A stretch of 64,000 nt of DNA from Smithellaceae bacterium. Its GTDB lineage: Bacteria > Desulfobacterota > Syntrophia > Syntrophales > Smithellaceae. A program made the translations under genes and the position numbers. Shown in pieces: positions 14,770 through 37,311 of this stretch (position 1 is its first letter; every line of letters starts with the position of its first letter). The notes beneath the pieces were generated by a model, which worked only from the letters and a program-made list of their open reading frames with translations, had not been told where the DNA came from and did not search any database. The stretch covers positions 23,436 through 87,435 of the forward strand of contig OY820932.1 in the NCBI GenBank assembly GCA_963682015.1, given 5' to 3'.

Positions 14770-14814
14770 ATGCAGGGAACGGTCACGACCGTTTTCTGCA
14801 CCAGGCCGGAAACA

Positions 14815-15717
14815 ATGAATTTTTTTTGGGACTTAATACTGGGAGGGATTACTCGCGGCAGCATTTATGCTTTGATCGCCCTGGGCTATACGATGGTTTA
14901 CGGCATTCTGCAGCTCATCAACTTCGCCCACGGAGAAATCTACATGATTGCCGCATTTACAGCTCTCATTTTTTCTTCCATCCTGGCCATGAAGGGACTC
15001 ACCGGCCTGTCGGTATTGATTCTTGCCGGCGTCGTTGCCATTGTGTATGCCTCGGCCTACGGCTTCACAGTTGAAAAAATCGCCTATAAACCATTGCGTC
15101 AGGCGTCTCGCCTTTCTCCGCTAATCAGCGCCATCGGCATGTCCATCTTTCTGCAAAACTATGTAATGCTGGCCCAGACATCCGATTTCCTTCCCTTCCC
15201 CAACCTGTTGCCGAAGCCTGCATTCCTGGACGGCATCAGTTCCTGGATCGGCCCGTCCGACTTTATCATCATTGTCACATCGGCTGTTGTGATGATTGGA
15301 CTTACCCTGCTTTTGAAATTCACCAAAATGGGCCGGGCCATGCGCGCTACGGCTCAGGATCAGGATATGGCGCTTCTGGTCGGCGTAAATGTCAACCGGA
15401 TCATTTCCCGGACATTCATCATCGGGTCAGCTCTTGCCGCCGCAGGCGGCATACTGATTGCCTCGCATGTCGGACGCATCAATTTTTACATCGGTTTCAA
15501 TGCAGGTATTAAAGCCTTTACGGCCGCGGTTCTTGGCGGCATCGGCAGTATTCCCGGCGCCATGCTGGGAGGCCTTGTGCTGGGACTAGCCGAAAGTTTC
15601 GGTACAGGCTACATCTCCAGCGATTATGAATCCGTTTTTGCTTTTGCGCTTCTGATCCTGATTTTGATTTTCAAACCTGACGGCATTCTGGGACGATCCT
15701 CCCAGCAGAAAGTTTAG
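14815..15717 (+). CDS. livH: Branched-chain amino acid ABC transporter permease
   Basis: GSIYALIALGYTMVYGILQLINFAHGE is the LivH signature. The start at 14815 gives the usual ~300 aa; the ORF-track start at 14770 is possible. Confidence 0.9.
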   Translation: MNFFWDLILGGITRGSIYALIALGYTMVYGILQLINFAHGEIYMIAAFTALIFSSILAMKGLTGLSVLILAGVVAIVYASAYGFTVEKIAYKPLRQASRLSPLISAIGMSIFLQNYVMLAQTSDFLPFPNLLPKPAFLDGISSWIGPSDFIIIVTSAVVMIGLTLLLKFTKMGRAMRATAQDQDMALLVGVNVNRIISRTFIIGSALAAAGGILIASHVGRINFYIGFNAGIKAFTAAVLGGIGSIPGAMLGGLVLGLAESFGTGYISSDYESVFAFALLILILIFKPDGILGRSSQQKV

Positions 15718-15726
15718 GAGGATGCC

Positions 15727-16938: not shown

Positions 16939-17747
16939 ATGAGCGATCCATGGAAAATATCCTTGAAGTGAAAAATCTCACCATGAACTTCGGCGGACTG
17001 CGGGCGCTGGATAATGTCAGCCTCCACATCCGTCCGGGTGAAATTGCCGCGCTCATCGGACCCAATGGCGCCGGCAAAACGACACTGTTTAACTGTCTCA
17101 CCGGCATATACAAGCCAACGGCAGGGGATGTTCTGCTGAAGGGTCCGGACAGCAAAATAAGGCCGCTCAACGGATTGAAAATCAATGCCATTACAAAGCT
17201 GGGCGTAGCCAGAACCTTCCAGAACATCCGACTTTTCGGCGGCATGACCGTTTTGGAAAATGTCATGATCGGACGCCATGGCCGTTCACAGTCTGGCATT
17301 CTCGGCGCCATTTTCCGCCCACCGTCTGCACGTCATGAAGAGAAATCCATCGTCGACAAAAGCTATTCTCTTCTCGAATACATTGGTCTGACGCAACTGG
17401 TAAACGAACTGGCTAAAAATCTTCCATACGGAGCGCAGCGCCGCCTGGAAATTGCGCGCGCCCTGGCTACGGAACCACGGCTGCTTCTACTGGATGAGCC
17501 GGCCGCAGGTATGAATCCGCAGGAAACCAATGAACTGGATTCCCTGATTTCCCAATTGCAGAAGGATTTTTCACTTTCCATCCTGCTCATTGAACATGAC
17601 ATGAAACTGGTCATGAATCTGGCGCAGAATATCTTTGTGCTCGACTACGGAGAGGAAATCGCCAGGGGAACGCCGCAGGAAATCCGCTGCAACCCGCTGG
17701 TTATCAAAGCCTATCTTGGAGAGGACACCGATGCTGAAGCTCGTTGA
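16935..17747 (+). CDS. livG: Branched-chain amino acid ABC transporter ATP-binding protein
   Basis: Walker A GPNGAGKTT, signature LPYGAQRRLEIA, Walker B LLLLDEPAAG. The GTG start overlaps the livM stop (GTGA). Confidence 0.92.
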   Translation: MNERSMENILEVKNLTMNFGGLRALDNVSLHIRPGEIAALIGPNGAGKTTLFNCLTGIYKPTAGDVLLKGPDSKIRPLNGLKINAITKLGVARTFQNIRLFGGMTVLENVMIGRHGRSQSGILGAIFRPPSARHEEKSIVDKSYSLLEYIGLTQLVNELAKNLPYGAQRRLEIARALATEPRLLLLDEPAAGMNPQETNELDSLISQLQKDFSLSILLIEHDMKLVMNLAQNIFVLDYGEEIARGTPQEIRCNPLVIKAYLGEDTDAEAR

Positions 17748-18438
17748 TGTCGAAACCTGCTACGGAAACATCCGCGCGCTTAAAGGAGTATCACTTTCTG
17801 TCGCTCCCGGTGAAATTGTCGCGCTCATCGGCTCTAACGGCGCAGGAAAATCCACAACCCTGATGTCCATCTCCGGCATTACACCGTCTCGCAACGGACA
17901 AATCCTTTTCGACGGCCAGTCCATCGAAAAAACTCAACCGGATAAAATCGTGGCCATGGGCATCTGCCAGGTGCCCGAGGGGCGGCGAATCTTTCCGAAA
18001 CTTAGTGTTCTGGAAAACCTTGAAATGGGCGCTTTTTTACGCAGCGACCATCCGGAAATAAGAAAAGATCTGGCCTATATCTATGAGCTTTTTCCCATTC
18101 TTTATCGCCGACGGCATCAGCAGGGCGGCACTCTTTCCGGAGGCGAACAGCAGATGCTGGCCATCTCTCGCGCGCTGATGGCCCGACCGAAGCTGCTTTT
18201 GCTGGACGAACCCTCCCTGGGTTTGTCCCCTTTGATGACCAAAACGATTTTTTCAATGCTTTTTAGAATTAATACGGAACACCGCACCACCATTTTTCTT
18301 GTAGAGCAAAACGCCTTCATGGCTCTCAGACTGGCCCACCGCGCCTATGTTCTGGAAAATGGTGCCATCACGATGGAAGGCAAAGCCTCCGATCTCCTGC
18401 ATGATGAGAATGTAAAGAAGGCCTATCTGGGAATTTGA
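17731..18438 (+). CDS. livF: Branched-chain amino acid ABC transporter ATP-binding protein
   Basis: Walker A GSNGAGKST, LSGGEQQMLAI, LLLLDEPS. I place the start at MLKLVDVE (17731) rather than the ORF-track start at 17635. Confidence 0.92.
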   Translation: MLKLVDVETCYGNIRALKGVSLSVAPGEIVALIGSNGAGKSTTLMSISGITPSRNGQILFDGQSIEKTQPDKIVAMGICQVPEGRRIFPKLSVLENLEMGAFLRSDHPEIRKDLAYIYELFPILYRRRHQQGGTLSGGEQQMLAISRALMARPKLLLLDEPSLGLSPLMTKTIFSMLFRINTEHRTTIFLVEQNAFMALRLAHRAYVLENGAITMEGKASDLLHDENVKKAYLGI

Positions 18439-18585
18439 GAATGATCCTAACCATGGCGTATTAAAATAAGAGGTATCCCTGCACCAGCAGATACTGTCCG
18501 ACCAGGTAAAACCCCATGGTGAACAGCCATTCGAGTGGAATCTTTCTCTCAAATCTATTACAGGCATTATCGTCACTTTTTGTCT

Positions 18586-19287
18586 TTAGCGTTCGGCTTT
18601 CTCCAGATCTTTTTCCGCATTCCGCATAAAAGAGGCCGTAAGGTAATCCAGCGTTTTGGGCAGCGTCAGCTCCATGCTGAAAAATATTTGCAGACGGATG
18701 TCCAGACAAACCGGTTCGCAGCGTAAAAGATGACCGCCTGCGGTAAAGTCACTGTTGATAAAATGGAAATGGAATCCCGGAACACTGACTGAAGGAACAA
18801 ACGGCGGTGTATAAAATCCGACCAGATGTCCCTCGACATCCCTGAAATGCCTGATTTTCTGGTGTGCCGTCGCTTCCGATAACGGCTGATAGTTGTCTGT
18901 TCTCGGAACGGAACGGGTCTCGATCGCAGTAAATTTTCCTTTCATGTGAATTGCATAAAACATATTGTCCGACGGCAGCGTGAGTTTGAGATGTCTTTCA
19001 AATGATGCATACGACATCGGTGCCGCTATTGCTTCTTCCAGAAAAGGTTTGAAATGGCACATGGTGGCAAATGGCGTTTTCATATCGTCTTCCACGGGCC
19101 GGGCATCTCCATGCAGGTCGAGTTGATAGAAATGGCCTCCCAGTGCAATCATTTCGCCGTCAAGATTGTTGAACGTACCGATGCCGAAATCACCTTTGAC
19201 CTTCAATGTGTCTATGGTAATGTCGTCACGGTAAAGACCTTCCACAATGGCGTTGATGGGGCTGCTGATATACAGACTGGTATGCAT
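18586..19287 (-). CDS. budA: Alpha-acetolactate decarboxylase
   Basis: LYISSPINAIVEGLY...GDFGIGTFNNLDGEMIALGG.FYQ is characteristic of AlsD/BudA. Confidence 0.88.
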   Translation of the reverse strand: MHTSLYISSPINAIVEGLYRDDITIDTLKVKGDFGIGTFNNLDGEMIALGGHFYQLDLHGDARPVEDDMKTPFATMCHFKPFLEEAIAAPMSYASFERHLKLTLPSDNMFYAIHMKGKFTAIETRSVPRTDNYQPLSEATAHQKIRHFRDVEGHLVGFYTPPFVPSVSVPGFHFHFINSDFTAGGHLLRCEPVCLDIRLQIFFSMELTLPKTLDYLTASFMRNAEKDLEKAER

Positions 19288-25241: not shown

Positions 25242-25697
25242 ATGGGAAAAATTCTTTCGGTAAACATCAGCGGGAAAAAAGGCGAGAAAAAACACAATAT
25301 CGGAAGTGCGCGCGCTCTGATCAATCAGGGGCTGGAAAATGACGCCCACATCGGGATGGAAATCCGGCAGATCAGCCTGCTTGCGTCCGAAAGCATCGAA
25401 AAGATCCGGCAGAAAGGTTTAAATGTCAGTTACGGCGATTTTGCCGAAAACCTGACAACAGAAGGCATTGAGCTTTTTACACTCCCCCTGGGCACAAAAC
25501 TTCAGGTGGGAGGCAATGTCCTTCTTGAGGTCACCCAGATCGGTAAAACCTGTCTGGCGCCCTGCGCCATTTATCATTCGGTAGGCGATTGCGTAATGCC
25601 GAAGGAAGGTATTTTTGTCCGCGTGCTGACCGAAGGATTGGTTGCAGTGGGTGATTCTATCATCATCTTAGCTCCTCCTTCACATAAGGAAGATTAA
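25242..25697 (+). CDS. MOSC-domain protein
   Basis: ~150 aa. ILSVNIS..KGEKK......A.L...GLE.DAH and a conserved Cys region (GKTCLAPCAIY), as in stand-alone MOSC proteins. Confidence 0.75.
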   Translation: MGKILSVNISGKKGEKKHNIGSARALINQGLENDAHIGMEIRQISLLASESIEKIRQKGLNVSYGDFAENLTTEGIELFTLPLGTKLQVGGNVLLEVTQIGKTCLAPCAIYHSVGDCVMPKEGIFVRVLTEGLVAVGDSIIILAPPSHKED

Positions 25698-26542
25698 AGG
25701 CCCAGATAGGGACGTAGCACCGCGGGAACAAAATCAGCGAGTCTGCGGGTCAGCAATCGGGAGAGTTTATTGGATAAACCATGAGGGATAAACTTGGATA
25801 ATCCGAGATATAAAATCTGATTGCGCAAACCGGGAACATATCGTTCCTTGCCCCGTATAAAAGCTTTTACTCCAGCCACCGTAACTTCCTTCACATCCAT
25901 GAAAGACATTTTAATGGGGATGTAGTCTGAAGGAAACCCGGCATCGTCAATCAGACGCGTCCTGGTAAAAGGCGGGTTGAGCGTCGATACCGTCACTTTA
26001 CTTCCTGCGGGAAGCTCAGCCCGTACCGCCTCGGTCAGGCTCTGCGTGAAGGCCTTGGTGGCGGCATAAAGCCCAAGGGTCGGCACTGGCTGGAATGCCG
26101 AAACCGAAGAAATATTCAGAACTCCTCCATAATTGCGTTTGATCATGGCGGGAAGAAAGAGGCGGGTCATTTTGGCATAGGCAAGGCAGTTGAGCAGGAT
26201 CATGCCGGACAGTCTGTCCAGAGGCATGTCCGAATACCGACCAAACCAGCAGACTCCGGCATTGTTCACCAATACGTGGGCTTCTCCCACCTGTTGTGTA
26301 ATCTGCTCATGTAACTGTTCGGGACCGTTAGATCCTGTAAGGTCTGCGTAAAAGGTCCATGTCTTTATTTGAAAGGTTTTTTGAAGCTCCGCAGCCCAGT
26401 CCTCAAGATTTTTTTTCTGCTCGGGAAGATCCACCAGAATGATGTTTGCTCCCTGTCGTGCAAAACATTCCGATAATCCCTTGCCAATGCCCATGGCGGA
26501 ACCTGTAACAAGCACGTTCTTCCCCTTCAGTCTTAGCCCCAC
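25694..26542 (-). CDS. Classical short-chain dehydrogenase/reductase (last gene of the acyl-CoA operon)
   Basis: TGSAMGIGKG (TGxxxGxG), NNAG, Ser...YAATK catalytic set. GTG start with an AAAGGAG RBS. Confidence 0.88.
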   Translation of the reverse strand: MGLRLKGKNVLVTGSAMGIGKGLSECFARQGANIILVDLPEQKKNLEDWAAELQKTFQIKTWTFYADLTGSNGPEQLHEQITQQVGEAHVLVNNAGVCWFGRYSDMPLDRLSGMILLNCLAYAKMTRLFLPAMIKRNYGGVLNISSVSAFQPVPTLGLYAATKAFTQSLTEAVRAELPAGSKVTVSTLNPPFTRTRLIDDAGFPSDYIPIKMSFMDVKEVTVAGVKAFIRGKERYVPGLRNQILYLGLSKFIPHGLSNKLSRLLTRRLADFVPAVLRPYLGL

Positions 26543-26594
26543 TTTAATCTCCTTTTATTCATGAATCCTCTTTTGGGATCATTCATATGACTGG

Positions 26595-27554
26595 TTAAGC
26601 CTGCAGGATTCCCGATAACTTCACATAGCGCGCAAAATCCTCAAAGGCCTCGCTGGTCGTGTATCTGAAACGGTATCCCAGCTCCTTTTTGACCTTGGCG
26701 TTGCTCACGATCCACGGATAACGAATCATGTTCAGGCAAGGACTGGGAAACTCGGTCATAAAGGACAAACGAAGATGCCACATCAAGTTGTTCAATGGCC
26801 ACAAAAGCCTAGCAGGTACTTTCAGGGGATATCCGCCGAGGATGCGGATCATTTCATCGAAGGTCATGGTTCCGTCCGCAGCCAGATTGTATATGCCTTT
26901 CTTTCTCTTTTTCAGCAGGTGGTACATGATATCCACCAGGTCATCTTCATGGATGTATTGGAAAGGCGCTGTTTTAGACGGCAGGATGCAGATCTTTTTG
27001 CAGAGATGCCGCGCCAGCGGGTTGGTGAAACCCGGCCCCACCACAAAGCATGGGCGGATTGTCGTTAGAAGGATATCAGGATGCTCCTTCTCGAAGTCCT
27101 TCATCCACACCTCAATTTCCTTTTTGTTTTTGGCATAAGTGAAATCGTCGTTACCCCTCAGCGGACTTTCCTCGACCAGGTATTCGGGATTATCAGGATG
27201 AAACCCGTAAGCGGTACTTGAAGAACAATCGAGAATCTGCCCAACGCCATGGGCAGCGGCTGTCTTCAGGACATTTTTTGTACCATTCACATTGATGTCT
27301 TCCATCAGGATCTTGTCGTGGATAGGCGGCAGGATATAAGCGGTGTGAATCACACAGTCTATCCTCTCGCCACTGAACACCTCCTTCAGATCAGCCCTGA
27401 TATCGCTTTTGATAAATGACAGCTTGGGCGAATGGAACGCGGGTGGTTTGATGTCAATCCCGCATATGCGTTCAATTTCATTTTTATTCGCAAAAAAAGA
27501 TACAAGCTTTTGCCCAAAATATCCTGAAACACCGGTGATCAGAATGTTCTTCAT
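26595..27554 (-). CDS. Extended SDR / NAD-dependent epimerase-dehydratase (3-beta-HSD-like) family protein
   Basis: N-terminal ITGVSGYFG (GxxGxxG), YAKNK (YxxxK), ~320 aa. Confidence 0.82.
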   Translation of the reverse strand: MKNILITGVSGYFGQKLVSFFANKNEIERICGIDIKPPAFHSPKLSFIKSDIRADLKEVFSGERIDCVIHTAYILPPIHDKILMEDINVNGTKNVLKTAAAHGVGQILDCSSSTAYGFHPDNPEYLVEESPLRGNDDFTYAKNKKEIEVWMKDFEKEHPDILLTTIRPCFVVGPGFTNPLARHLCKKICILPSKTAPFQYIHEDDLVDIMYHLLKKRKKGIYNLAADGTMTFDEMIRILGGYPLKVPARLLWPLNNLMWHLRLSFMTEFPSPCLNMIRYPWIVSNAKVKKELGYRFRYTTSEAFEDFARYVKLSGILQA

Positions 27555-27563
27555 AAAGCTGCC

Positions 27564-28697
27564 TTACGTAAGGTGTTCATTGATGAGAGCCAGTTTCTTG
27601 AGCGGAACCATGCCGAGGAGGGCCTGGACTTGCCTGGCGTCCCGGTAACGCTTCTCCTGACCATAATCTTTCATGTACCCGTAGCCACCCAGTAACTGAA
27701 CGCCATCGGTAACGACCTCGCAGGCAAGATCATGGACGTGCAGTGCGGATGCAATGCTGATCCAGCCCCAGTCCTTGAGATTCTCGTCAATCGCCTTGCA
27801 GGTCTGAGTCACGCAAAGCTCGGCGGCCTTGGATTTGATCGCCATGTTGGACAGGAGCATCCTCACTTCCGACCAGTTGATCACCGGACGGCCGCCCTGC
27901 ATTCGCTCTTTTGTATACTCGATGGCTTCCTTGAGAGAACCTCTCATTATACCGGCATTGGTAGCAGCAGCGGCCACATGCATCATTCTGGAAGCAGCCT
28001 CGAAATACTTTGCCCCCTTGCCTTCCTCACCGATGATTTGGGCGCTGACATTGTTCAGGGTAACATCAACGATGGGGCTCGCATGGAGTCCGAGACTGAT
28101 GACGGGATTGCTTATCGAGACACCGCCGTCATTGAGGTTTACGAGGAAGAAGGAATAGCTTTTAGAGCCGGTGGCTCGGGCCGGGATGATTGCCCACTTC
28201 GAATAATTGCCAAGGGAGAGATAATCGAGTTTTCCCGTAAGCACGTAGCCTTTGCCGGAGGATATCGCGTTCGGCAGGATCCTCGACTGACCGGGATCCG
28301 TAAATGACGGGAAAGCGACGAGGTACTCCTGGGCAGTCTCAGCGCTTAAATAAACCTTTTCAGCTATTTCTTCTGCGCCGGCTTTCAGAATGATCTGCTG
28401 CGAGAGCGCACTCGTGAAAATGTTCAAACAATAGGAAGCGTCAACCTCTGCGACGTGGCCCAGCATCATGCAAAGGACGCTGATCCCCTGGCCGATACCG
28501 GCGTATTTTTCCGGCAACATGATACCCAGGAAACCCAATTCGTAGATCTTACGAAAACTCGTTTCGATGACATCGACATCAAGGCTCCCGTATGGATATC
28601 TGTCGTGTTCCTCGATGCTAGGCTTAAGGTCGCTCTTTGCATAGGATGTAATGAGATCCTCAAATGGCTTCAGGTCTTTGTTCAATGCAGTCAGCAT
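27564..28697 (-). CDS. Acyl-CoA dehydrogenase-fold protein lacking the catalytic Glu (putative non-catalytic beta subunit)
   Basis: ACAD-like throughout (...LLGGYGYMKDYGQEKRYRDAR...). Where ACADs carry (I/L)YEGT(S/N)EIQ it has QALLGMVPLKK. The TEPxAGSD-type region reads FPSFTDPGQSR. Confidence 0.75.
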   Translation of the reverse strand: MLTALNKDLKPFEDLITSYAKSDLKPSIEEHDRYPYGSLDVDVIETSFRKIYELGFLGIMLPEKYAGIGQGISVLCMMLGHVAEVDASYCLNIFTSALSQQIILKAGAEEIAEKVYLSAETAQEYLVAFPSFTDPGQSRILPNAISSGKGYVLTGKLDYLSLGNYSKWAIIPARATGSKSYSFFLVNLNDGGVSISNPVISLGLHASPIVDVTLNNVSAQIIGEEGKGAKYFEAASRMMHVAAAATNAGIMRGSLKEAIEYTKERMQGGRPVINWSEVRMLLSNMAIKSKAAELCVTQTCKAIDENLKDWGWISIASALHVHDLACEVVTDGVQLLGGYGYMKDYGQEKRYRDARQVQALLGMVPLKKLALINEHLT

Positions 28698-28711
28698 AGT
28701 CTCCTCCTTCC

Positions 28712-30220
28712 TTATTCTTCAAAAAATGCCGCGCCGGGACTGGCTTGGGGGCTAATGAGAGATTTAAACAGGTTGATTCGATTGAGCTGGTTGGTTCCTT
28801 CATAAATCTGAAGCAGTTTGGCATCCCGCAGAACTTTTTCCGCGCCGCTGTCATGCCTGAGCCCCGCCCTTCCCATAAGCTCGAGGGCCATCTGACAGTT
28901 CCTGACTCCGAAATCCGTGCAGGAAAATTTGGCCATGGAAGCCAGGCCCGTGGTCAGATGCTGGTCTTCCGGTTTTTGCCAGTCGAGGTACCACTTGCTC
29001 ATGAACCAGTTCACCATGCGCGAGTTCAGCAGGGGCGTAACGAACATTTTGAAATACATCACCGGCAGATACTTCGAATAGTAGTAGATGGGTTTCATCT
29101 GGAGAAGATTGTAGGCCCCCCGGTGCTGATTGGCCAGGTTGGACTCCATATAGGCAAGTCTGCCGAGTCTGACGTTGGCATACATTTCAGCCAGTCTGCA
29201 TTGCACCCACTCATAGTCGACCATGGGTTTGCCGTCGATCTCGGTCTCATTGGCATATTTCAAGGCAATCTCAAAGGCTCCGCGCGCAGCGCCGATTCCG
29301 AATGAGCCGACCCCCGCCCGGGAAAGAGAAAAGACATAATCAATGTGACGCATGTTGATGTCGCGGGGAGACTGTTTCGTGAATGATTTTAGCAAGTCAG
29401 GGTTGAGTACCACCAGTTCGTCGGGAACAAAACAGTCCTCGAAAATGAGCACGCTGGCCGGGCAGGCCCTCTGTCCCATTTTATTCTCGTGTCTGCCGAA
29501 GGAAAATCCTTTCATGCCTGTCCTCACCATCAGAGCCACCTTGGTATCAGCGCCCCTTTTCAGGTCGCCATAGGCATAGACTGTATGCCACGTTGAAAGA
29601 TGCCCGTTGGAGATGAATACCTTGCTGCCATTGAGGATATAGCCGCCATCGACCTTCCTGGCATGACATACGAGCCTGCCTCTTGCTTCCAGATCCACCT
29701 CCTCAACATCGGTACCCGCCGCAGGCTCGGTGATAGCATAAGAAATGAGGCATGGATTGCCGGTCTCCTCGCCGGCAACAACATCGCCCAATACCTTCTT
29801 CATAATCCTTGTGTTGCCTAACATCATGACTGCCGCCATGCCAAGATAATGCACGCCAATCAAATTCGCAAAACCAAGGCAGACCGATCCGACCTCCTCA
29901 TTGAAAAATGACAGGGAAGGCATGTTGTACCCCTTGCCGCCAAACATCTTCGGTATCCACAAAGTGTAAAGGCCCCATTCATTCGCTTTCCGAACAACTT
30001 CCGCGGGAATGTAGTCCAGGTCTTCATGGGTTTTCCGGTCGAGATCTAGATACAGAGGCCGTACCACTTCTTCTTTGAACTTGCGTGCCAGAGCGACCAC
30101 CTCCTCGGTTTCCTTGATCATGGCCTTGGGCATCCGCGGCCCGTAATACATCGAAAGTGTATTGTCTTCGAACCGGGGAAACTGAGATATGAATGATTTT
30201 ACCTCTGATCTCTTCAACAT
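28712..30220 (-). CDS. Acyl-CoA dehydrogenase (putative catalytic alpha subunit) with a C-terminal-domain insertion
   Basis: YAITEPAAGTDV, FISNG, and RDAKLLQIYEGTNQLNR (catalytic Glu present). The start at 30220 (MLKRSEV) has an AAGGAG RBS 6 nt upstream; the ORF-track start is 30241. Confidence 0.85.
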   Translation of the reverse strand: MLKRSEVKSFISQFPRFEDNTLSMYYGPRMPKAMIKETEEVVALARKFKEEVVRPLYLDLDRKTHEDLDYIPAEVVRKANEWGLYTLWIPKMFGGKGYNMPSLSFFNEEVGSVCLGFANLIGVHYLGMAAVMMLGNTRIMKKVLGDVVAGEETGNPCLISYAITEPAAGTDVEEVDLEARGRLVCHARKVDGGYILNGSKVFISNGHLSTWHTVYAYGDLKRGADTKVALMVRTGMKGFSFGRHENKMGQRACPASVLIFEDCFVPDELVVLNPDLLKSFTKQSPRDINMRHIDYVFSLSRAGVGSFGIGAARGAFEIALKYANETEIDGKPMVDYEWVQCRLAEMYANVRLGRLAYMESNLANQHRGAYNLLQMKPIYYYSKYLPVMYFKMFVTPLLNSRMVNWFMSKWYLDWQKPEDQHLTTGLASMAKFSCTDFGVRNCQMALELMGRAGLRHDSGAEKVLRDAKLLQIYEGTNQLNRINLFKSLISPQASPGAAFFEE

Positions 30221-30323
30221 AGGTTCTCCTTTCCCAATCATCGTATTTTCTTTAAATTTGTCTGGCTCATTGAAAAAGGGTCCGGTTGACCGTCATGGAC
30301 CACCGGGCGCCGATTATCTCCTG

Positions 30324-31928
30324 TTATCCAAGAGAAATGATATTAGGCGCATTGGGCCGGAATTCCTCCCGCAGGAGTCTGTCCAGGTTCTTCTCCGACG
30401 CGGTTTTGGGAATCTCGGACACGATCTGAAGATAGGAAGGAATTGAATTTTTCTCCAAGATCTTCCCCAGTTCCACGGATATTCTCTTTGCATCAATGGC
30501 CCCGTTTCCATTGGCGGGTACAATGGCCGCCACAATGTCACTCTCTCCGGGTGCGCCGGTGCTGGCAGGAATGCCATAGACACAGACATCGTTCACTTCG
30601 GGAAGATCGGCCAGGGCCTTCTCGACATATTCGGGTAAAATGAAATCGCCGTGACGGCGAAGCCCGCCGCCTTTGCGGAAATCAAAATACAACCAGCCGT
30701 TGGCATCCCGGTGGCACATATCGCCCGTGCGCAACCAGCCGCCGCGCGTCTTCGCCTCTGAGGCATCCTTTTTGCCATGGTATTCCACTTCCTCTTTTTT
30801 GGCGCCAACCATCCGGCAGATCAATTCTCCAATTTCACCCGGTTTGCACTCCGTGTCGTCTTGATGAACGACTTTCATCTCCATGATTCCTTCAATCGGT
30901 TTGCCGAATGATCCGAGGGGGCCGGTGCCGGGTTCATTGTGGGCAAATCCTCCCTCCACGGCGCCATACCATTCGTGAATCTTGACATTGAAGCGCTCTT
31001 CAAAATCTTTCCAGATCGGCAGAGGCGTGCCGGCGCTGAGCACCTTGCGGACCGGATTATCCCCGTCGCTTTCCTTTTTCTTTTCACTGTAGATACCCAT
31101 CATCATGCCGCCCAGGAGTGAAAAGCTGGTCACACCATACTTGCGGCAGATGTCCCACAAACGGCTCTTGGTAAATGAACGACTGACAACAGCAGACATA
31201 CCGAGAAGAAGGGCCGGGCTCAAAGTCACAGACTGGGCGTTGCCGTGGGTCATGGAAAGTCCCGTGTACAGAACATCATCGTTGTTGTATTGCCAGATGA
31301 GCTGGGCAAGCAGTTTGAACATGGAAAGACGGTTGGACTTGACGACGACGCCCTTGGGATCCCCCGTGGTCCCTGAAGTGTAAATGATTTCGAACGGTGA
31401 TTGGGGATCGCGGTTGCGGTCAGCGGGAGGATCGATCTTCGGACCATCCAGGGTGGAGGCCAGATCCGGGTACTGATCACGGCGCGGCGTTTCGAAGCCG
31501 GGTTTGTACAATATCCCGATAACTTTCACATGGGGAAATTCCGCCAGAGTTTTTTCCACTTCTCCCGCATATTCGTTGCTGAAGATGATTCCTTTGGAAT
31601 TGGAATCCCGGACCTGATAGGTCAGCTTGTTTCCTTTCGACCGGGGATCGATGGGAACAATGACAGCGCCAATCAGCGAAGCTGCCATCATGCAATAAAC
31701 GAATTCCGGATGATTCTTCATCACGACACTGAACCGGTCGCCGTTGCCGATGCCTGCCTTCCGGAGGGCGGATGCCAGCTTGCACCCTTTCAGAAAGATG
31801 TCCGCATAGGTAACTGTTTCATCGGGCCAATCACCATTTTCAAATGTCAACACCTTGAAATCCGGTTTCTCTTCATATTTTGCCTCTATCTCATAGGAAA
31901 ATAATCCCTGTACCATTTCTCCCTGCAT
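30324..31928 (-). CDS. AMP-forming acyl-CoA synthetase/ligase
   Basis: AMP-binding motif IIYTSGTTGDPKGV, plus YGAVEGG, WLRTGD and a C-terminal lysine region (IPKTASEK). The ATG at 31928 has a GGAGG RBS; the ATG at 31940 is an alternative. Confidence 0.88.
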   Translation of the reverse strand: MQGEMVQGLFSYEIEAKYEEKPDFKVLTFENGDWPDETVTYADIFLKGCKLASALRKAGIGNGDRFSVVMKNHPEFVYCMMAASLIGAVIVPIDPRSKGNKLTYQVRDSNSKGIIFSNEYAGEVEKTLAEFPHVKVIGILYKPGFETPRRDQYPDLASTLDGPKIDPPADRNRDPQSPFEIIYTSGTTGDPKGVVVKSNRLSMFKLLAQLIWQYNNDDVLYTGLSMTHGNAQSVTLSPALLLGMSAVVSRSFTKSRLWDICRKYGVTSFSLLGGMMMGIYSEKKKESDGDNPVRKVLSAGTPLPIWKDFEERFNVKIHEWYGAVEGGFAHNEPGTGPLGSFGKPIEGIMEMKVVHQDDTECKPGEIGELICRMVGAKKEEVEYHGKKDASEAKTRGGWLRTGDMCHRDANGWLYFDFRKGGGLRRHGDFILPEYVEKALADLPEVNDVCVYGIPASTGAPGESDIVAAIVPANGNGAIDAKRISVELGKILEKNSIPSYLQIVSEIPKTASEKNLDRLLREEFRPNAPNIISLG

Positions 31929-32010
31929 GCTAGCCTCCATTTAGTACGCTTAAATACTCGTTTGATATTCCGTTTTTACATCAATCGAAGTAAAGGTTTT
32001 TCAATTCATA

Positions 32011-33252
32011 TTATTTTACTTTTCCCAGGATGTGGATGCCCATGGCCGCCTCTTCCACACCAATGTTGCCTCCACCGTTTTCCGCCAGTCCGATTCTGGC
32101 CCCTTCCACCTGCCGTTTTCCGGCATCGCCCCGGAGCTGCGTCACCAGTTCATGAATCTGGGAGAGGCCGGAAGCACCTATGGGGTGTCCCTTACACTCC
32201 AGGCCGCCACTTGTGTTGATGGGTTTTTTACCCCCAAGTTTTGTTGCCCCGGATTGGGCAAACGGTCCGCCTTCTCCCATGGGGCAAAATCCCATAGACT
32301 CTGTCTGATGGAGTTCACCCCAGGATGTCGCATCGTGCAGTTCGGCGAAGTCGATGTCTTCCGGACCAATGCCCGCCGCATCGTAAGCCTGCTTGGCCAG
32401 ACGTTCTCCGATATCCGGCGCGTTGATATCACGGTCCGTGCCGGTGCCGAGAATCGAGGCCATAATCCGGACCGGCCGTGCGTTTACCAGTTTTTTCAGA
32501 TATTTTTTCGAACAGATGATTGCTGCGGCAGCCCCGTCGCCGACTGGCGCGCACATCGAACGCGTCAACGGGTAGGCAACGGCCTTGTCCGCCAGAACCT
32601 CCTCCACAGTCATTGTATGCTGATACTGAGCCAGCGGATTTAGCGATCCATGAAAATGGTTCTTGGAGCAGATTACAGCCAGCTGATGCTGATTTGAGCC
32701 GAAACGGCTCATATGCCAGCGTGCACCCAGCGCATAAGCGTCCATGAAAATGCTTCGCCCTTCCCCCGGCGCCGACTGATCCTCCGGAAGCTTCACTGTG
32801 AAGGTTCTGCTCAGCTCCATGATATTGTTGATGTGCTTTTCAAAGTTGCCCACATCCATGCATGTGGCATAAGCTCCAAGGGAAAGGGACTTGTTCGGAT
32901 TTGTAATTTTTTCCGAACCCATGGCGAGGGCCACATCATACATTCCAGCCCTGATCCCCGTGCAGGCCATATGCAGCGCTGTTGATCCACCCGCGCAGGC
33001 ATTTTCCACATTAGTGATGGGGATTCTTCCAACTCCCATATTCCGCATAACCACCTCGCCGCGGATGGAATGCTGATTATCGAACATTCCCCAGAAGGTA
33101 TTGGCAAAGAATACCGCTTCCATGTCTTCCTTCGCCAGTCCCGCGTCTTCCAAAGCCAGTTCAATGGCTTCGTGCGCCATGGTTTGCACCGTCTTATCGG
33201 GATATTTTCCAAACCGGATCATCCCGACACCGATAATGTAAATGTTTTCCAT
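32011..33252 (-). CDS. SCP-x / nonspecific-lipid-transfer-type thiolase
   Basis: MENIYIIGVGMIRFGK..., active-site NACAGGSTAL, and a C-terminal GGLECKGHPIGASG...ENGGG pattern typical of SCP2-type thiolases. AGGAGA RBS. Confidence 0.85.
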   Translation of the reverse strand: MENIYIIGVGMIRFGKYPDKTVQTMAHEAIELALEDAGLAKEDMEAVFFANTFWGMFDNQHSIRGEVVMRNMGVGRIPITNVENACAGGSTALHMACTGIRAGMYDVALAMGSEKITNPNKSLSLGAYATCMDVGNFEKHINNIMELSRTFTVKLPEDQSAPGEGRSIFMDAYALGARWHMSRFGSNQHQLAVICSKNHFHGSLNPLAQYQHTMTVEEVLADKAVAYPLTRSMCAPVGDGAAAAIICSKKYLKKLVNARPVRIMASILGTGTDRDINAPDIGERLAKQAYDAAGIGPEDIDFAELHDATSWGELHQTESMGFCPMGEGGPFAQSGATKLGGKKPINTSGGLECKGHPIGASGLSQIHELVTQLRGDAGKRQVEGARIGLAENGGGNIGVEEAAMGIHILGKVK

Positions 33253-33307
33253 CTTATCTATCCTTTCTCCTGTTTTTAAAAATCATGGATGCCCATGATG
33301 ATTTTAA

Positions 33308-35755
33308 TCATTTCACCCAGACGACCTTGGGAAACTCTCTCTCTACAACGCAATCCATTCTCACCGCCGGGTAGCCAACCGTGATGATCTCCGCCACGGT
33401 TGCATATGGCCAGACAACACCAAGACGTTCTTTGTATTTCTTCATCTTCGGATCCATATTCAGAACGGAAGTGGCAAATCCCACGTAGCAGGTGCCCAGC
33501 CCCAGAGAATGTGCTGCCAGAACAATGTTCTGTCCGCACACGCCGGTTCCAAAAGCCATATCGGATATGTATTGCTTGTGACCGAGAATGAGGATGGCCG
33601 TAGGGGCATTGAAAAAGACGCTTTGCGGCTCTTTCCCGTACTTGGGTGTCATCAGGGCCTGAATGGCCAGCATGGGCCTCTGGTCGATGGCTTCGGGCTT
33701 CATGATGGCCAACGTATTTTTCAACAAGGTGCGGGGAAGACTTTTGCCCTGGTAGAGTTTGGAAAAGGTGTGCAGGAACTTCCTTGTTCCATCGCTGATC
33801 TCATCCATCAAAGCCCGGTCTTGAAGCACGCTGAATTTCCATCCCTGGCAGTTTCCCGCCGAAGGGGCAAAACGTCCCGCCTCCAGAATCCGGTGGATCA
33901 TATCATCAGGAACCTGGTCCGGCTTATAGATTCGAGTGGATCTCCGCTGGTAGATCACCTTTTCCGTCTCGGTCAGTTGGGAGGCAATGGAACTGAATTC
34001 CGGCACCTCAGCAGCCCGGAGGGGATTGGGATACCCGCCTCCCGTTTTCCTGGGGTAATCGAATTCATAACGCCAGCGACCGTTTTCAACGGAGTAAAAA
34101 TGAGGGAAACGAAGGGCCTGATTCGGGCAGACCGCTTCACAATTGCGGCAGGCCAGACAGATTTTCCCGAAATAGGGCATGCCGACAAATGATGATTTTG
34201 AACTTCCGCAGCGAATGCACCGCCTGGCTTCCACAAGGACCTGATCGGCATGAATCGGCAGATGAACCTCCGTGTCCATATTCCTGAGGCGTTCGGCAAC
34301 GGACATCAGAGAACAGCTGTTGCGGGGAATTTTTTCGTATTCGTTAAAGGGCATGCCCTTGTATGAAATTTCGAGTTTCCTGCTGTCTTTGAATTGCCTG
34401 CTTTTGATATGGGCGACAATCGCGGCAGCCGCCCTGCGTCCGGCACCGATTGCCGCCGTCACCGTTGCCGGACCTGAGACGACATCTCCACCGGCAAAAA
34501 CGCCTTTCATCGTGGTCGCACAGCTTCCGCCGGCCTCGATGATTCCCTTTCCGTTGATCAGACTCTCAAATCCTTCCGCCACAATGACCTGGCCGATAGC
34601 CGATATCACCGCATCAGCGGCTACAGTGAATTCACTGCCGTCAACGGGAACGGGTTGCGCCCTTCCTGATTTGTCTTTTTCTCCCGGTTTCATTTTGATG
34701 CAGGTCATGGTGAGGGATGTTTGGTTTCTCTTGATTCCGACAGGGGCGCATAGACCCTGTATGGCGATGCCTTCCTCCTGCGCCTCGGCAATCTCCGATT
34801 CATGGGCTGGCATATCTTCCAGCGACCGTCGGTAAAAAATGGTCACATTGGACCCCAGACGTCTCAATGAACGGGCCGTATCAATGGCCGTGTTGCCGCC
34901 GCCGATGACAATGACCTTTTGTCCCGGAGCATCTTTACGCCCCTGCGCGACTTTCTTCAGAAATTCCAGGCCGGAGTGAATGAGGTCTTCCTTTTCTCCG
35001 TCGATCCCGAGCTTGCCCGTGTCCTGGCAGCCAATCGCTACATAGACCGCTTTGAAATCCTTTCGGAGCTCTTCAAGCGCCACGGACCTGCCAACTTCTA
35101 CATTGCATCGAATATCAACACCCAGGTCGGCGATTCTTTGGATTTCTTCATCCAGAACGGGTCTGGGTAGACGATAGGAAGGGATGGCATAGCGCAGCAT
35201 CCCGCCGGGCTGAGGCCGGGATTCAAATATGGTCACGGAATATCCCGCAAGCGACAGGTGATAGGCGCAGGACAAGCCCGAAGGTCCCGACCCGATGACC
35301 GCCACTTTGTTATCGGACAATGGATTCTTTCTTTGAAAACGAAGTTCCTTTTCTATGGCATAGTCCCCGATAAACCACTCGACGCCATGGATACCCAGAG
35401 ACTCGTCAACATTGCTCCGATTGCAGCCTGATTCGCAGGGATGCGGACAAACTCTTCCGGTGATGGCAGGCAGGGGATTGGCTTCCGTAATGACTTTCCA
35501 CGCATCTTCAAAAGACCCGCCATGGGTGAGGAGATGAAGGTAACGCCGGACATCGATCCCGGCAGGACATTGATGCTGGCAGGCCGGTTCCTGATATTTC
35601 GACGGTTCACGATCCACCATTCCGATCGTTTGAGCGGGGCATTGTTTGACGCACATGCCGCAGCCGATACACTTGTCCTCGTCCAGGATGATGTTCCAGG
35701 GAGCACCCTTCACAGGGGGATCACTGAGATTGCTCCATTTACTGTTTGCAGCCAT
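33308..35755 (-). CDS. Multi-domain Fe-S flavoprotein: ferredoxin-like + GltD/NfnB-like NAD(P)H:FAD oxidoreductase + ferredoxin-like + nitroreductase-family domain
   Basis: CIGCGMCVKQCP; CQHQCPAG and RVCPHPCESGC (GltD-type N-terminal clusters); VAVIGSGPSGLSCA (FAD); VIVIGGGNTAIDTA (NAD(P)H); GVFAGGDV; CIRCGS...CLACRNCEAVCP. The C-terminal ~230 aa has RRSTRIYK...APSAGNCQGWKF (nitroreductase fold). The start at 35755 has an AAGGAG RBS. Confidence 0.85.
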   Translation of the reverse strand: MAANSKWSNLSDPPVKGAPWNIILDEDKCIGCGMCVKQCPAQTIGMVDREPSKYQEPACQHQCPAGIDVRRYLHLLTHGGSFEDAWKVITEANPLPAITGRVCPHPCESGCNRSNVDESLGIHGVEWFIGDYAIEKELRFQRKNPLSDNKVAVIGSGPSGLSCAYHLSLAGYSVTIFESRPQPGGMLRYAIPSYRLPRPVLDEEIQRIADLGVDIRCNVEVGRSVALEELRKDFKAVYVAIGCQDTGKLGIDGEKEDLIHSGLEFLKKVAQGRKDAPGQKVIVIGGGNTAIDTARSLRRLGSNVTIFYRRSLEDMPAHESEIAEAQEEGIAIQGLCAPVGIKRNQTSLTMTCIKMKPGEKDKSGRAQPVPVDGSEFTVAADAVISAIGQVIVAEGFESLINGKGIIEAGGSCATTMKGVFAGGDVVSGPATVTAAIGAGRRAAAAIVAHIKSRQFKDSRKLEISYKGMPFNEYEKIPRNSCSLMSVAERLRNMDTEVHLPIHADQVLVEARRCIRCGSSKSSFVGMPYFGKICLACRNCEAVCPNQALRFPHFYSVENGRWRYEFDYPRKTGGGYPNPLRAAEVPEFSSIASQLTETEKVIYQRRSTRIYKPDQVPDDMIHRILEAGRFAPSAGNCQGWKFSVLQDRALMDEISDGTRKFLHTFSKLYQGKSLPRTLLKNTLAIMKPEAIDQRPMLAIQALMTPKYGKEPQSVFFNAPTAILILGHKQYISDMAFGTGVCGQNIVLAAHSLGLGTCYVGFATSVLNMDPKMKKYKERLGVVWPYATVAEIITVGYPAVRMDCVVEREFPKVVWVK

Positions 35756-36261
35756 ACGATCATGCTCCTTTCCAGCTAAAAAGATAAGCCATCCATCTCT
35801 GTTCACATGTTCATGTTGCCTCATTTTCTTGTGTATGCTTCAATATCAGGCGGGATGACTCAAAACAATATTGCCGGGGGGTCATTTCATTTGTGAGCTG
35901 CGGTCACAAAGGTGTCCGCTGTCTGGAGACCTCACTATTCCATGAAAGTTAAAATAAATTTTAGATGAATGATTAAATTGAGTTTCAAGGGTGATTTTCA
36001 GTGCGGAAAAATCATTGCCTGGCACCGGTCGATGGTCAAATTCATTGACCCGTGACCGCAAATCACAATATATATGGCCTTAAATCATATTCTCTATTAC
36101 AGGAATAAATTGTATAGTAAAATGAATTCAGCAGCACGTTGCTTTATGGATGGAAAAGTTTTTAATATAGAGGCCGCATTTTAGATGAAGTAGACTCGAC
36201 AATTCTTTGTTCAAGGACTCCTGGATTGTAGAAACGGTGAACACCATAAGGATGATTGCTT

Positions 36262-37311
36262 ATGAAACAGTCTGAAGACCTCAGCAGGATTCATCTTAAA
36301 TCAACGGATCGTTTGCAACTTAAGCGTTCCATCTACAGCGTGAGAATACTGGTCGATTATGCAAAGAAGTTCAACATTCCGGCTGAGGTCCTGTTGTATG
36401 GCAGCACGATCAAACCCGGCGATCTCGCTGATCCTGAGATGTTTATCACCCCTGAAGAAGAACTGAAGATCTTCAGGAGATCGATCCTGCTGATCCCTGA
36501 CTCGAAACTCGGTTTGGAAATAGGCAGGCTGCACAATGCCAGCGCCATGAGCCGGGTTGCCATACCGGCCATGTTTTGTGAAACGGCCCTTGATGCATTC
36601 CGTATCATGTTCAAGTATATTGATCTCACACAGACTTATTGTCAATACGATCTTATTGTCAAAGACGATCTTGCCATCCTGAGCTGCAAGGAACTGATCG
36701 TGTTCGGAGATCTGAGGCGCTTTCTATGCGAGCGTGATTTGGCGTCAAACTATATTTTAAGCCGTACTGCACTGGGCGGTCCTTTTATTCTGAAAGGAAT
36801 AACGCTGACGTATCCACGGCCTGAATACACCAGGGCATATCAGGATATGTTCAATTGCCCCATCACCTTCAATACGGACAAGTTTCAGGTTTTTTTCGAC
36901 AAAAACTATTTAAACGCCCGTCTGCCTCTGGCCAATGCCCTGACCAGGGATATCTATGAAAAAGAGTGTAAACGTGCCTATGCACGCCTGCATGAAAAAA
37001 AGTCCACATTGGACAAGATACAGGAGGAACTGTTGTTTCCTCAGGCTGAGTCCCCTTGTTTCGATCAACTGGCCCGCCGGATGAACATGTCAGCGCGGAC
37101 ACTGAGGCGCCACCTGTCCGCCGAGGGCATATCCTACAAAAATCTATCAAATGAGATTCGGAAAAAAAAGGCTCTCGAACTGCTTACTTCAACGAGTCTG
37201 TCCATAGAAAAAATTGCAACTGAACTCGGATATCAAAATGTGGCGAATTTCTATCATGCCTTTAAACTCTGGACGGGCGCAACGCCCAGCAGCTATCGGA
37301 AGACCAAGTGA
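36262..37311 (+). CDS. AraC-family transcriptional regulator (N-terminal AraC-binding-like domain plus C-terminal dual HTH)
   Basis: The C-terminus LARRMNMSARTLRRHL...IATELGYQNVANFYHAFKLWTGATPSSYR is the AraC/XylS HTH_18 signature. Divergent from the acyl-CoA operon. ATG at 36262 with an AAGGA RBS. Confidence 0.9.
   Translation: MKQSEDLSRIHLKSTDRLQLKRSIYSVRILVDYAKKFNIPAEVLLYGSTIKPGDLADPEMFITPEEELKIFRRSILLIPDSKLGLEIGRLHNASAMSRVAIPAMFCETALDAFRIMFKYIDLTQTYCQYDLIVKDDLAILSCKELIVFGDLRRFLCERDLASNYILSRTALGGPFILKGITLTYPRPEYTRAYQDMFNCPITFNTDKFQVFFDKNYLNARLPLANALTRDIYEKECKRAYARLHEKKSTLDKIQEELLFPQAESPCFDQLARRMNMSARTLRRHLSAEGISYKNLSNEIRKKKALELLTSTSLSIEKIATELGYQNVANFYHAFKLWTGATPSSYRKTK

Follow-up and report, generated by a model that had tools for sequence, protein, structure and literature searches.

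A conserved acyl-CoA gene cluster of a Smithellaceae bacterium headed by an iron-sulfur/flavin/nitroreductase fusion protein: a candidate anaerobic catabolic pathway

GltD and DPD take in NADPH at one site and relay its electrons through iron-sulfur (FeS) clusters to a distal flavin, and together with NfnABC/StnABC they share a Fer4_20 domain and a FAD/NADPH module that feed an FeS wire to a second flavin. In NfnABC, the homologous NfnB-like domain is the point of NADPH entry and passes single electrons via FeS clusters to the distal flavin site; bifurcation does not take place in this domain itself (PMC11829005). We describe here a relative of these modules in a 64,000-nucleotide stretch of DNA from a Smithellaceae bacterium (contig OY820932.1; the whole stretch is called the window below), where it forms part of the first product of a seven-gene acyl-CoA operon. 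Unlike in DPD, GltD and NfnABC, its terminal flavin is held by a nitroreductase domain in cis, a DHODH-like, glutamate-synthase or HydB-like partner is lacking, and the surrounding genes are those of acyl-CoA metabolism.

The enzyme families of the operon are ordinary; what appears to be undescribed is their conserved combination, and the FeS-nitroreductase module fused to an NfnB-like NADPH domain. The preliminary description of this window had proposed a pathway not described before, and full-text literature searches found no such gene set in a characterised pathway. Our preferred interpretation, which we put forward tentatively, is that of an inducible, AraC-controlled operon of the beta-oxidation type for a lipophilic acid, be it unsaturated, branched or alicyclic, in which the fusion protein would act as an ene- or dienoyl-CoA reductase and hydration would be provided in trans. 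An anaerobic and catabolic role had been suggested before; we infer it from the kinds of regulator and enzyme encoded and from the host organisms.

The operon and its products

In order of transcription, the operon consists of the following genes, where ACAD stands for acyl-CoA dehydrogenase, SDR for short-chain dehydrogenase/reductase, 3-beta-HSD for 3-beta-hydroxysteroid dehydrogenase and ORF for open reading frame:

33308-35755, minus strand: fusion redox protein (FeS/FAD/NADPH/nitroreductase), 815 aa from the ATG at 35755; the ORF, 33308-35824, reaches 35824 (838 aa)
32011-33252, minus strand: SCP-x/BbsB-type thiolase, 413 aa, Thiolase_N and Thiolase_C_1 (136.6 bits, Pfam)
30324-31940, minus strand: AMP-forming acyl-CoA ligase, 538-aa ORF, AMP-binding (197.6 bits) and AMP-binding_C
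28712-30241, minus strand: large ACAD subunit (ACADL), about 502 aa from the Met at 30220
27564-28697, minus strand: small ACAD-fold partner (ACADS), 377 aa, 14 nt past ACADL
26595-27554, minus strand: extended SDR of the epimerase/3-beta-HSD type, 319 aa, Epimerase 89.4 bits, 3Beta_HSD 45.1 bits
25694-26542, minus strand: classical SDR, 282 aa, adh_short 138 bits (Pfam)

The ORF map reproduces the layout of the preliminary description, with seven minus-strand genes, a divergent AraC gene and a 506-nt control region; the gaps of 55, 14, 9 and 52 nt are exact, and those given there as about 82 and about 103 nt are the values from internal Met starts. The ligase may start at a Met at 31928, and the ACADL start at 30220 matches an aligned Spirochaetota orthologue. 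All the domain assignments made earlier, including the pairing of a catalytic with a Glu-less ACAD, were borne out by Pfam and NCBIfam. No terminator-like site stronger than chance was found inside the operon. At its far end, the stop of the classical SDR gene overlaps the end of a convergent MOSC-domain gene (25242-25697) by 4 nt (window 25694-25697), which leaves no space for a terminator between those two genes.

For the fusion gene, the ATG at 35755 is almost certainly the true start, since an AAAGGAG lies 9 nt upstream and the homologues are all 812-822 aa long. Pfam finds in it, in this order, Fer4, Fer4_20 (76.8 bits), Pyr_redox_2 (104.7 bits), Fer4 and Nitroreductase (PF00881, 99.6 bits), that is, a ferredoxin-like [4Fe-4S] module, an NfnB/GltD-like Fer4_20 plus FAD/NADPH module, a second Cys-rich FeS segment and, at the C-terminus, an FMN domain of the nitroreductase fold. 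The NCBIfam match PRK12771 scores 539 bits, over its cut-off of 516, and residues ~55-520 share 34-39% identity with the NfnB-like NADPH/FAD domain of NfnABC/StnABC by PDB sequence search and Foldseek (Foldseek E 1e-49 against NfnABC), with lower similarity to NfnB and GltD (32-33%) and to DPD (~25%). The C-terminal 250 residues have the nitroreductase fold with the usual FMN motifs; RRSTR (the RxSxR FMN-phosphate motif) and GLGTC are kept in all homologues, and the domain matched uncharacterised nitroreductases only, and no characterised subgroup. The AlphaFold model is confident for the GltD-like core only, with a per-residue confidence score (pLDDT) of 30-70 in the nitroreductase domain, the geometry of which was not used for any interpretation. 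Pfam detects in the fusion no Oxidored_FMN domain, the TIM barrel of old yellow enzyme (OYE). A DUF35/Zn-ribbon domain hidden in the linker was considered and rejected: the Cys pattern CxxC...CxxCxxCxxxCP fits a ferredoxin remnant instead, because stand-alone relatives carry the full 2x[4Fe-4S] motif. In sequence, the fusion is nearest (80-86% identity) to proteins from metagenome-assembled genomes (MAGs) of Smithella/Smithellaceae.

ACADL keeps the catalytic Glu (IYEGTNQ) and the TEPxxGxD motif (YAITEPAAGTD), whereas ACADS reads QALLG (QALLGMVP) where QIYEG is expected at the catalytic position and has lost TEPxxGxD (SFTDPGQSR). Two adjacent ACAD-fold genes, one alone with the catalytic Glu and the other with degenerate motifs, are what a heteromeric ACAD of the alpha2beta2 type (ChsE, FadE26-27 or PimCD), in which a heterotetramer holds one FAD per heterodimer, calls for, and the pair is kept in related loci (L006, L008, L010, L032, L035, L050 and L168-L171). 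The C-terminal domain of ACADL contains an insertion of ~45 aa rich in Tyr, Phe, Trp and Met (PIYYYSKYLPVMYFKMFVTPLLNSRMVNWFMSKWYLDW; residues ~380-425, window 28900-29100), which is also found in the Spirochaetota orthologue and is typical of a large, widespread family of ~500-aa ACADs; it could be a lipid- or membrane-binding lid, or a surface on which the partner docks. In two of three further contexts sampled, this insertion-bearing family occurs with a nitroreductase, a thiolase and a ligase. Both ACADs have the acryloyl-CoA reductase AcrC as their best NCBIfam match, and their PDB matches include the caffeyl-CoA reductase CarC, Bcd and a ChsE-type chain from Thermomonospora.

In the thiolase, the nucleophile Cys86 (NACAGGS), the His of GHPIGASG and the Asn of NTSGG are intact. 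The enzyme reads HDAT where SCP2-thiolases read HDCF (HDCF in zebrafish SCP2-thiolase, HDAF in BbsB), and the loss of the acid/base Cys of HDCF groups it with the BbsB-like subtype. Of the motif classes set out for thiolases and aldolases, those of steroid aldolases are YDHF or YDCY (PMC12329534); with HDAT and a conserved Cys86, the thiolase does not have the marks of a steroid retro-aldolase (Ltp2/Sal). Its best PDB matches are BbsB (7pxp_C) and the SCP2-thiolase 6hsj, each at ~201 bits, and its score against the BbsB equivalog in NCBIfam is 223.9, against a cut-off of 750. Thiolases of related clusters are 67-92% identical to it, and the members of its 90%-identity cluster are named Smithellaceae. 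The operon, with intergenic gaps of 9-103 nt, has no ORF for a DUF35 (Zn-ribbon/OB) partner; among the relatives, DUF35 is present only beside a second thiolase, in L006.

The motifs of the ligase are whole by translation; its closest solved relative is FATP2, a very-long-chain acyl-CoA synthetase (5e-35), and long-chain fatty-acid-CoA ligase families take the top NCBIfam ranks, all under cut-off. The extended SDR, with complete GxxGxxG and YxxxK motifs and weak PDB relatives, is 63-88% identical to its counterparts in related clusters. The classical SDR has TGxxxGIG, NNAG and YxxxK whole, and its top NCBIfam match is mycolate reductase-like and under cut-off.

Conservation, control and genomic setting

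Conservation was counted in the 51 loci left after duplicate removal (labelled L001 onward), 50 of which have a full-length fusion homologue. The thiolase is present in 49, an ACAD in 39, the ligase in 37, the classical SDR in 36 and the extended SDR in 25; a PAS histidine kinase is found in 19, a sigma54 regulator in 16, AraC in 12, and a recurrent 127-aa protein, which Pfam identifies as SCP2 (in a second example likewise), in 16. The recurrence of the gene set in ~50 independent loci indicates that the grouping is more than chance. Conservation as a unit, on which the preliminary description had made its proposal depend, was found, though in at least six gene orders:

Order A (this window): AraC, divergent from fusion, thiolase, ligase, ACADL, ACADS, extended SDR, classical SDR
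Order B (the commonest): histidine kinase, response regulator, SCP2, ligase, single ACAD, thiolase, fusion, extended SDR, SDR, with a chemoreceptor gene after them in some loci
Order C: AraC, divergent from ligase, thiolase, fusion, ACADL, ACADS
Order D (L026, L043, L048): ACADS, ACADL, SDR, a 210-258-aa protein with no Pfam match, thiolase, ligase, fusion
Order E (Spirochaetota): a butyryl-CoA:acetate CoA-transferase-like gene in the place of the ligase
Order F: 2-hydroxyacyl-CoA dehydratase and its probable activator in the place of the ACAD (L039), or no ACAD (L044)

Across orders A to C, the thiolase, ligase and SDRs are 58-92% identical and the fusion only 52-57%; the single ACAD of order B is not orthologous to those of the window (~25% identity). 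Members of this protein family, the fusion, are frequent in Syntrophia, Desulfobacterium-like MAGs, Desulfocicer niacini, Spirochaetota and Leptospirales, and many of the loci come from sewage digesters, others from deep groundwater, mine and sediment metagenomes. Some loci also carry transporters of the MMPL/DUF1302/DUF1329 or Mla type, and in four a gene for a FadH/BaiCD-like OYE-FeS-FAD reductase adjoins the fusion.

The fusion had been taken for a redox protein dedicated to this operon. It is instead the hallmark of a wider cluster family, in which its FeS-nitroreductase half can stand alone. Searching the whole library with the C-terminal half of the fusion (E<=1e-30) gave only 32 clusters (50% identity), among them proteins of ~335-350 aa made of a full 2x[4Fe-4S] ferredoxin domain and a nitroreductase domain. 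In 21 sediment-metagenome loci with at least 4 kb of flank on each side of such a gene, the partners within 7 kb included a ligase (16 loci), an SCP-x thiolase (15 loci) and an ACAD (14 loci), but an SDR only four times and a crotonase once. The stand-alone gene adjoins an ACAD pair in L096, L098, L103 and L088, and in L087 it overlaps the stop of the small ACAD. In the Desulfobacteraceae-type loci L170 and L169, where ACADL is 55-56% identical to that of the window, the nitroreductase is alone (249 aa), just upstream of the ligase, and that ligase carries the 2x[4Fe-4S] domain as an N-terminal fusion (L170 6776-8851, L169 5811-7945); the FeS domain thus moves between partners within the cluster family. 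Judging from these loci, the evolutionary core is the FeS-nitroreductase with ligase and thiolase, usually accompanied by an ACAD, to which the NADPH module was added in the lineage of the window.

Several less common neighbours were also recorded. In four sediment loci, a protein of 500-517 aa with no PDB relative follows the nitroreductase-ACAD-ACAD genes (L096 5073-6572, L098 4045-5598, L103 6054-7607, L107 2285-3808), and a PaaK-like ligase precedes the nitroreductase gene. A family of 210-219 aa with no Pfam match, present in 6 loci (e.g., L012 13730-14389, L016 7221-7880, L043 5152-5784, L048 6286-6924), has the motifs GDW(K/Q)xKAF and, at the C-terminus, PW(V/I)GPD, and in some members an N-terminal hydrophobic segment. 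The ACAD-less Smithella variant (L039 2817-8488) has the order thiolase, fusion, ligase, nitroreductase, together with two HGD-D subunits of a radical enzyme of the 2-hydroxyacyl-CoA dehydratase type, an alpha/beta-hydrolase and an SDR; a 262-aa ORF of L039 may be the dehydratase activator, and one BcrAD_BadFG match, whose locus was not mapped, was seen among 130 neighbours. Five of 130 co-directional non-core neighbours of fusion-containing clusters carry MCPsignal. In the sigma54-controlled order of L004, a methyl-accepting chemotaxis protein gene (16919-18562; 547 aa, HAMP and MCPsignal) directly follows the SDR, and ORFs of 547 and 553 aa occupy the same position in L020 (14610-16253) and L021 (14390-16051).

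Control of the operon of the window by a divergent AraC gene, as proposed earlier, is supported, and a conserved pair of operator-like sites was found in addition. The features concerned are:

36256-37311, plus strand: AraC-family regulator, ~349 aa from the ATG at 36262, Arabinose_bd and HTH_18
35756-36261, no strand: divergent control region (506 nt, GC content 39%), two blocks of which are conserved in an alignment with four related loci
35892-35908, no strand: operator-like site 1, TGTGACCGCAGCTCACA, palindromic, ~137-153 nt upstream of the operon start codon
36052-36067, no strand: operator-like site 2, TGTGATTTGCGGTCAC as read on the minus strand, in the opposite orientation to site 1, their extended arms 144 nt apart

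The regulator matches PF12625 Arabinose_bd at 95.5 bits and a C-terminal HTH at 75.5 bits (Pfam), its NCBIfam matches are QhpR/CypR/GliR-like and all under cut-off, and its orthologues (57-89% identity) are divergent to the operon in 12 related loci. Each conserved block of the control region carries one 16-bp site, TGTGA-NN-TGCGGTCAC. Within the 64 kb, TGTGA-N7-TCAC is confined to the control region (3 strand-matches against 0.43 expected), and a degenerate form, mostly paired, is found in the AraC-operon intergenic regions of orders A and C, with AraC present in 12 of the 14 matching loci. The paired sites are most simply explained as a putative AraC operator pair. A sigma54 promoter was rejected, the GG-N10 element of the control region having TTTT where GC is needed, and sigma70-like matches in this region are no commoner than in shuffled sequences.

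The seven genes (25694-35755) have a GC content of 51.8%, against ~46% on both sides. They lie between nadA, metX/metW, ridA and the MOSC gene on one flank and rdgB, rph, an amidase gene, spoT, proS, ispG, rpsA and lepA on the other, and these flanking genes are found beside the cluster in no relative. The same holds for the alcohol dehydrogenase and AhpD/CMD-like genes beyond the regulator, which had been suggested to belong to the same block; the unit is therefore AraC with the seven genes. Given the GC contrast and the unshared flanks, the cluster looks like an island and was most likely acquired horizontally. About 7 kb away there is a Liv-type ABC transporter operon (Peripla_BP_6, two permeases, ATPases; window 13642-18438, plus strand), and a similar transporter adjoins AraC in L001. 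Two further genes of the window are unrelated to the operon: one for a GGDEF-hemerythrin fusion (62922-63833, minus strand), possibly an O2/NO-sensing diguanylate cyclase, and one for alpha-acetolactate decarboxylase (18586-19287, minus strand).

A possible route and its alternatives

In the route that we favour, the FATP-like ligase would form the acyl-CoA and the putative heteromeric ACAD, with its catalytic large subunit and Glu-less partner, would introduce the 2,3 double bond. After hydration in trans by a stand-alone crotonase, the classical SDR, the extended SDR or both would oxidise the hydroxyl to the 3-oxo group, and the SCP-x/BbsB-type thiolase, of a kind that tolerates 2-substituted or bulky 3-oxoacyl-CoAs, would release acetyl- or propionyl-CoA. 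In the fusion protein, the hydride of NADPH would pass to the FAD of the NfnB/GltD-like module and from there, as single electrons through [4Fe-4S] clusters, to the FMN of the nitroreductase fold, which would reduce a C=C bond of the CoA-bound substrate, either a conjugated dienoyl or enoyl bond or another one that blocks beta-oxidation. Nitroreductase-fold domains such as that of FbiB are able to reduce activated C=C bonds. The acyl-CoA/enoyl-CoA couple lies near -10 mV and NADP+/NADPH at -320 mV, so that any enzyme linked to NADPH has to work in the reductive sense when the pathway is oxidative.

The uptake of a hydrophobic acid, its activation with CoA and its shortening are suggested by the inducible regulators, the chemoreceptors, the exchange of ligase for CoA-transferase, the SCP2 gene, the FATP2-like ligase and the lipid-type transporters. 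The exchange in order E indicates that the step catalysed is the formation of a CoA thioester. The regulators, AraC with its operator-like pair or a PAS histidine kinase with a sigma54 regulator, look like those of inducible catabolic systems, and the chemoreceptor genes hint at chemotaxis toward the substrate. That the substrate is lipophilic is hinted at by SCP2 in 16 loci, by FATP2 as the solved relative of the ligase and by the MMPL/DUF1302/DUF1329 or Mla transporters.

The preliminary description had noted the lack of any hydratase and of electron-transfer flavoprotein (ETF). This holds for the operon; it does not hold for the window, where two orphan crotonase genes lie among housekeeping genes (4878-5927, minus strand, ECH_2, 349 aa; 52955-53728, minus strand, ECH_1, 257 aa, with the catalytic glutamates present by reading of the translation), nor for L169, in which genes for a 3-hydroxyacyl-CoA dehydrogenase (3HCDH) and an ECH_1 enoyl-CoA hydratase (ECH) directly follow the ACAD pair. 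The orphan crotonases could supply the hydratase missing from the operon, and with L169 they indicate that hydration can be classical. Among the 130 co-directional non-core neighbours of the fusion, no crotonase, MaoC or ETF family exceeded one or two members, and the result was the same among 130 neighbours of the stand-alone form. ETF genes were found in none of the ~120 clusters examined, and ETF, NfnA or HydB-like genes, as potential bifurcation partners, neither in the operon nor in the 260 co-directional neighbours. Neither a tblastn search of L001-L085 with the crotonases of the window nor a PhaJ probe run against these loci gave a match. A hidden hydratase in these loci was rejected on the same crotonase and MaoC results, the recurrent 127-aa protein being SCP2.

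A number of observations weigh against the beta-oxidation route with a C=C reductase. The absence of crotonase, MaoC and ETF from almost all clusters would be odd if hydration were an ordinary step. The nitroreductase domain fits no characterised subgroup and its model is of low confidence, and a C=C reductase would be a surprising constant partner of a thiolase and a ligase. There are also minimal thiolase-nitroreductase-ligase clusters with neither ACAD nor SDR (L100, L117, L044), and where the stand-alone FeS-nitroreductase abuts the ACAD pair or overlaps it, as in L087, the role of a redox partner fits at least as well.

That role is the basis of the first alternative, which we consider unlikely: the FeS-nitroreductase module would substitute for ETF as a dedicated redox partner of the ACAD, an electron shuttle and not a substrate reductase. 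It could bring electrons from NADPH or ferredoxin to the ACAD, making an ETF-independent enoyl-CoA reductase, with the N-terminal FeS domain possibly used for bifurcation to ferredoxin; or it could carry ACAD electrons straight to a second double bond of the same substrate, a redox-neutral round that would spare a syntroph reverse electron transport. What keeps an ETF-independent mechanism alive is the absence of ETF from the ~120 clusters, the FeS-nitroreductase genes that abut or overlap ACAD pairs, and the migration of the FeS domain among nitroreductase, ligase and NADPH module; its presence on the nitroreductase or, in L170, on the ligase suggests a multi-enzyme complex. The company of the insertion-bearing ACADL family points the same way, as does the N-terminal module, whose nearest relatives are subunits of bifurcating complexes, although the homologous module of NfnABC serves for NADPH entry only and is not the bifurcation site. 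Against a shuttle, the fusion or nitroreductase persists where there is no ACAD (L039, with 2-hydroxyacyl-CoA dehydratase instead, L044, L100 and L117), and we know of no nitroreductase-fold protein that docks on an ACAD. The NADPH/ferredoxin-linked variant has the further difficulty that acyl-CoA oxidation with reduction of NADP+ or ferredoxin is strongly endergonic, which would restrict it to the reductive direction, a poor fit with the thiolase, the SDRs and the catabolic regulators. It is improbable, in our estimation, that the module represents a new ETF-independent way of handling ACAD electrons in strict anaerobes, whether as redox-neutral wiring or as an NADPH/ferredoxin-linked, possibly bifurcating enoyl-CoA reductase.

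Degradation of the side chain of steroids, bile acids or other polycyclic or isoprenoid acids, as an anaerobic counterpart of FadD17/19-ChsE-Hsd4A-Ltp/FadA5-3-beta-HSD, is a quite improbable alternative; the fusion would then be a ring or side-chain ene-reductase analogous to BaiCD/BaiH. Each enzyme family of the operon has its counterpart in steroid pathways. The putative heteromeric ACAD with a Glu-less partner and a ChsE-type chain among its PDB matches, the C-C cleaving enzyme of the SCP-x family, the 3Beta_HSD-type extended SDR and the matches of the ligase to FadD17 and to the steroid-22-oyl-CoA synthetase CasI would all be in character, as would the SCP2 sterol-carrier gene of related loci, the BaiCD-like OYE beside some fusion genes and the many loci from sewage digesters. 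However, all these matches are far under curated cut-offs and therefore reflect shared superfamilies, not orthology; there is neither a MaoC/ChsH hydratase nor a DUF35 partner, and the thiolase keeps its Cys nucleophile and reads HDAT, not YDHF or YDCY. In addition, bile acids are not to be expected in deep groundwater, mines and sediments, whose metagenomes also hold such clusters, and one variant has a CoA-transferase of the butyryl-CoA:acetate type.

Least credible of the alternatives that we name, and very unlikely, is a reductive or biosynthetic direction, by chain elongation (reverse beta-oxidation) or lipid modification, whose use would be as an electron sink or for making a special lipid: the thiolase would condense, an SDR reduce the 3-oxo group, and the ACAD and fusion reduce the enoyl-CoA with NADPH. 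Thermodynamically, a partner of the ACAD that is linked to NADPH would run easily towards reduction, AcrC, CarC and Bcd are among the matches of the ACADs, the best matches of the SDR are 3-oxoacyl reductases, and the module with 2-hydroxyacyl-CoA dehydratase in L039 resembles reductive Stickland branches. Yet the dehydratase is missing just as the hydratase is, the regulators are of a substrate-responsive catabolic kind and accompanied by chemoreceptors, the exchange of ligase for CoA-transferase and the SCP2 carrier point to an external acid, and the ECH with an NAD-type 3HCDH in L169 is typical of degradation. The remaining probability falls to chemistry outside these readings, including radical hydration or dehydration by an ACAD/FeS-flavin pair. 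The C6-dismutation of propionate known from Smithella was set aside on account of the GC-rich accessory island with its inducible regulator, shared with Spirochaetota, the lipid-type ligase and SCP2, and the lack of a mutase; a set of the Ole/beta-lactone type (thiolase, AMP-ligase and extended SDR) was likewise rejected, as the thiolase is of the SCP-x and not the FabH/OleA type and the ligase can be exchanged for a CoA-transferase.

Comparison with described systems

The module is widespread in syntrophic and sulfate-reducing Desulfobacterota, in Spirochaetota and in others, in digesters, sediments and the subsurface. If the fusion is an NADPH-driven ene- or dienoyl-CoA reductase, it would be a new catalytic scaffold for the reduction of CoA thioesters and its gene a genetic marker for the anaerobic breakdown of unsaturated, branched or alicyclic lipid acids, relevant to long-chain fatty, naphthenic and sterol-derived acids under methanogenic conditions. 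Were it instead a redox partner of the ACAD, it would bear on the way syntrophs dispose of high-potential acyl-CoA electrons. Either way, AraC and its operator-like pair offer a compact handle for an inducer search.

Among whole pathways, the steroid side-chain systems of actinobacteria and proteobacteria share with the operon an ACAD pair, an SCP-x enzyme, a ligase, a classical SDR and a 3-beta-HSD-type SDR. Unlike them, the operon lacks MaoC, DUF35, oxygenases and KstR-type regulators, its thiolase combines HDAT with the Cys nucleophile, its host is a strict anaerobe and its matches to these systems stay under cut-off. The bbs operon resembles it in having both an ACAD and two SDR genes, and in BbsB, which ranks jointly first among the solved relatives of the thiolase and has likewise lost the Cys of HDCF; in contrast to bbs, the operon has no BbsA (DUF35), BbsH hydratase or succinyl-CoA transferase (BbsEF), and has a CoA ligase, an extended SDR and the FeS-flavin fusion. 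An operon described in a paper on limonene is different, as it carries a hydratase and ETF. The peroxisomal beta-oxidation of branched-chain and bile acids (FATP2/VLCS, ACOX2, MFE-2, SCPx and SCP2) is alike in its FATP-like ligase, SCP-x thiolase and SDR, and the parallel extends to a separate SCP2 carrier in the commonest related order (B), though to none in this window; the operon departs from it in having ACADs in place of oxidases and no hydratase-2 domain, in being bacterial and anaerobic, and in its extra reductase.

For the fusion protein itself, the comparison with FadH and BaiCD/BaiH is the nearest. Like the route proposed here, these enzymes take electrons from NADPH through FAD and [4Fe-4S] to FMN and on to the C=C bond of a CoA thioester, as auxiliaries of beta-oxidation. 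FadH and BaiCD do so with an OYE TIM barrel, whereas the fusion has a nitroreductase fold, an NfnB/GltD-like NADPH module and several extra FeS clusters, and it is by cofactor logic only that FadH would be its closest functional analogue.

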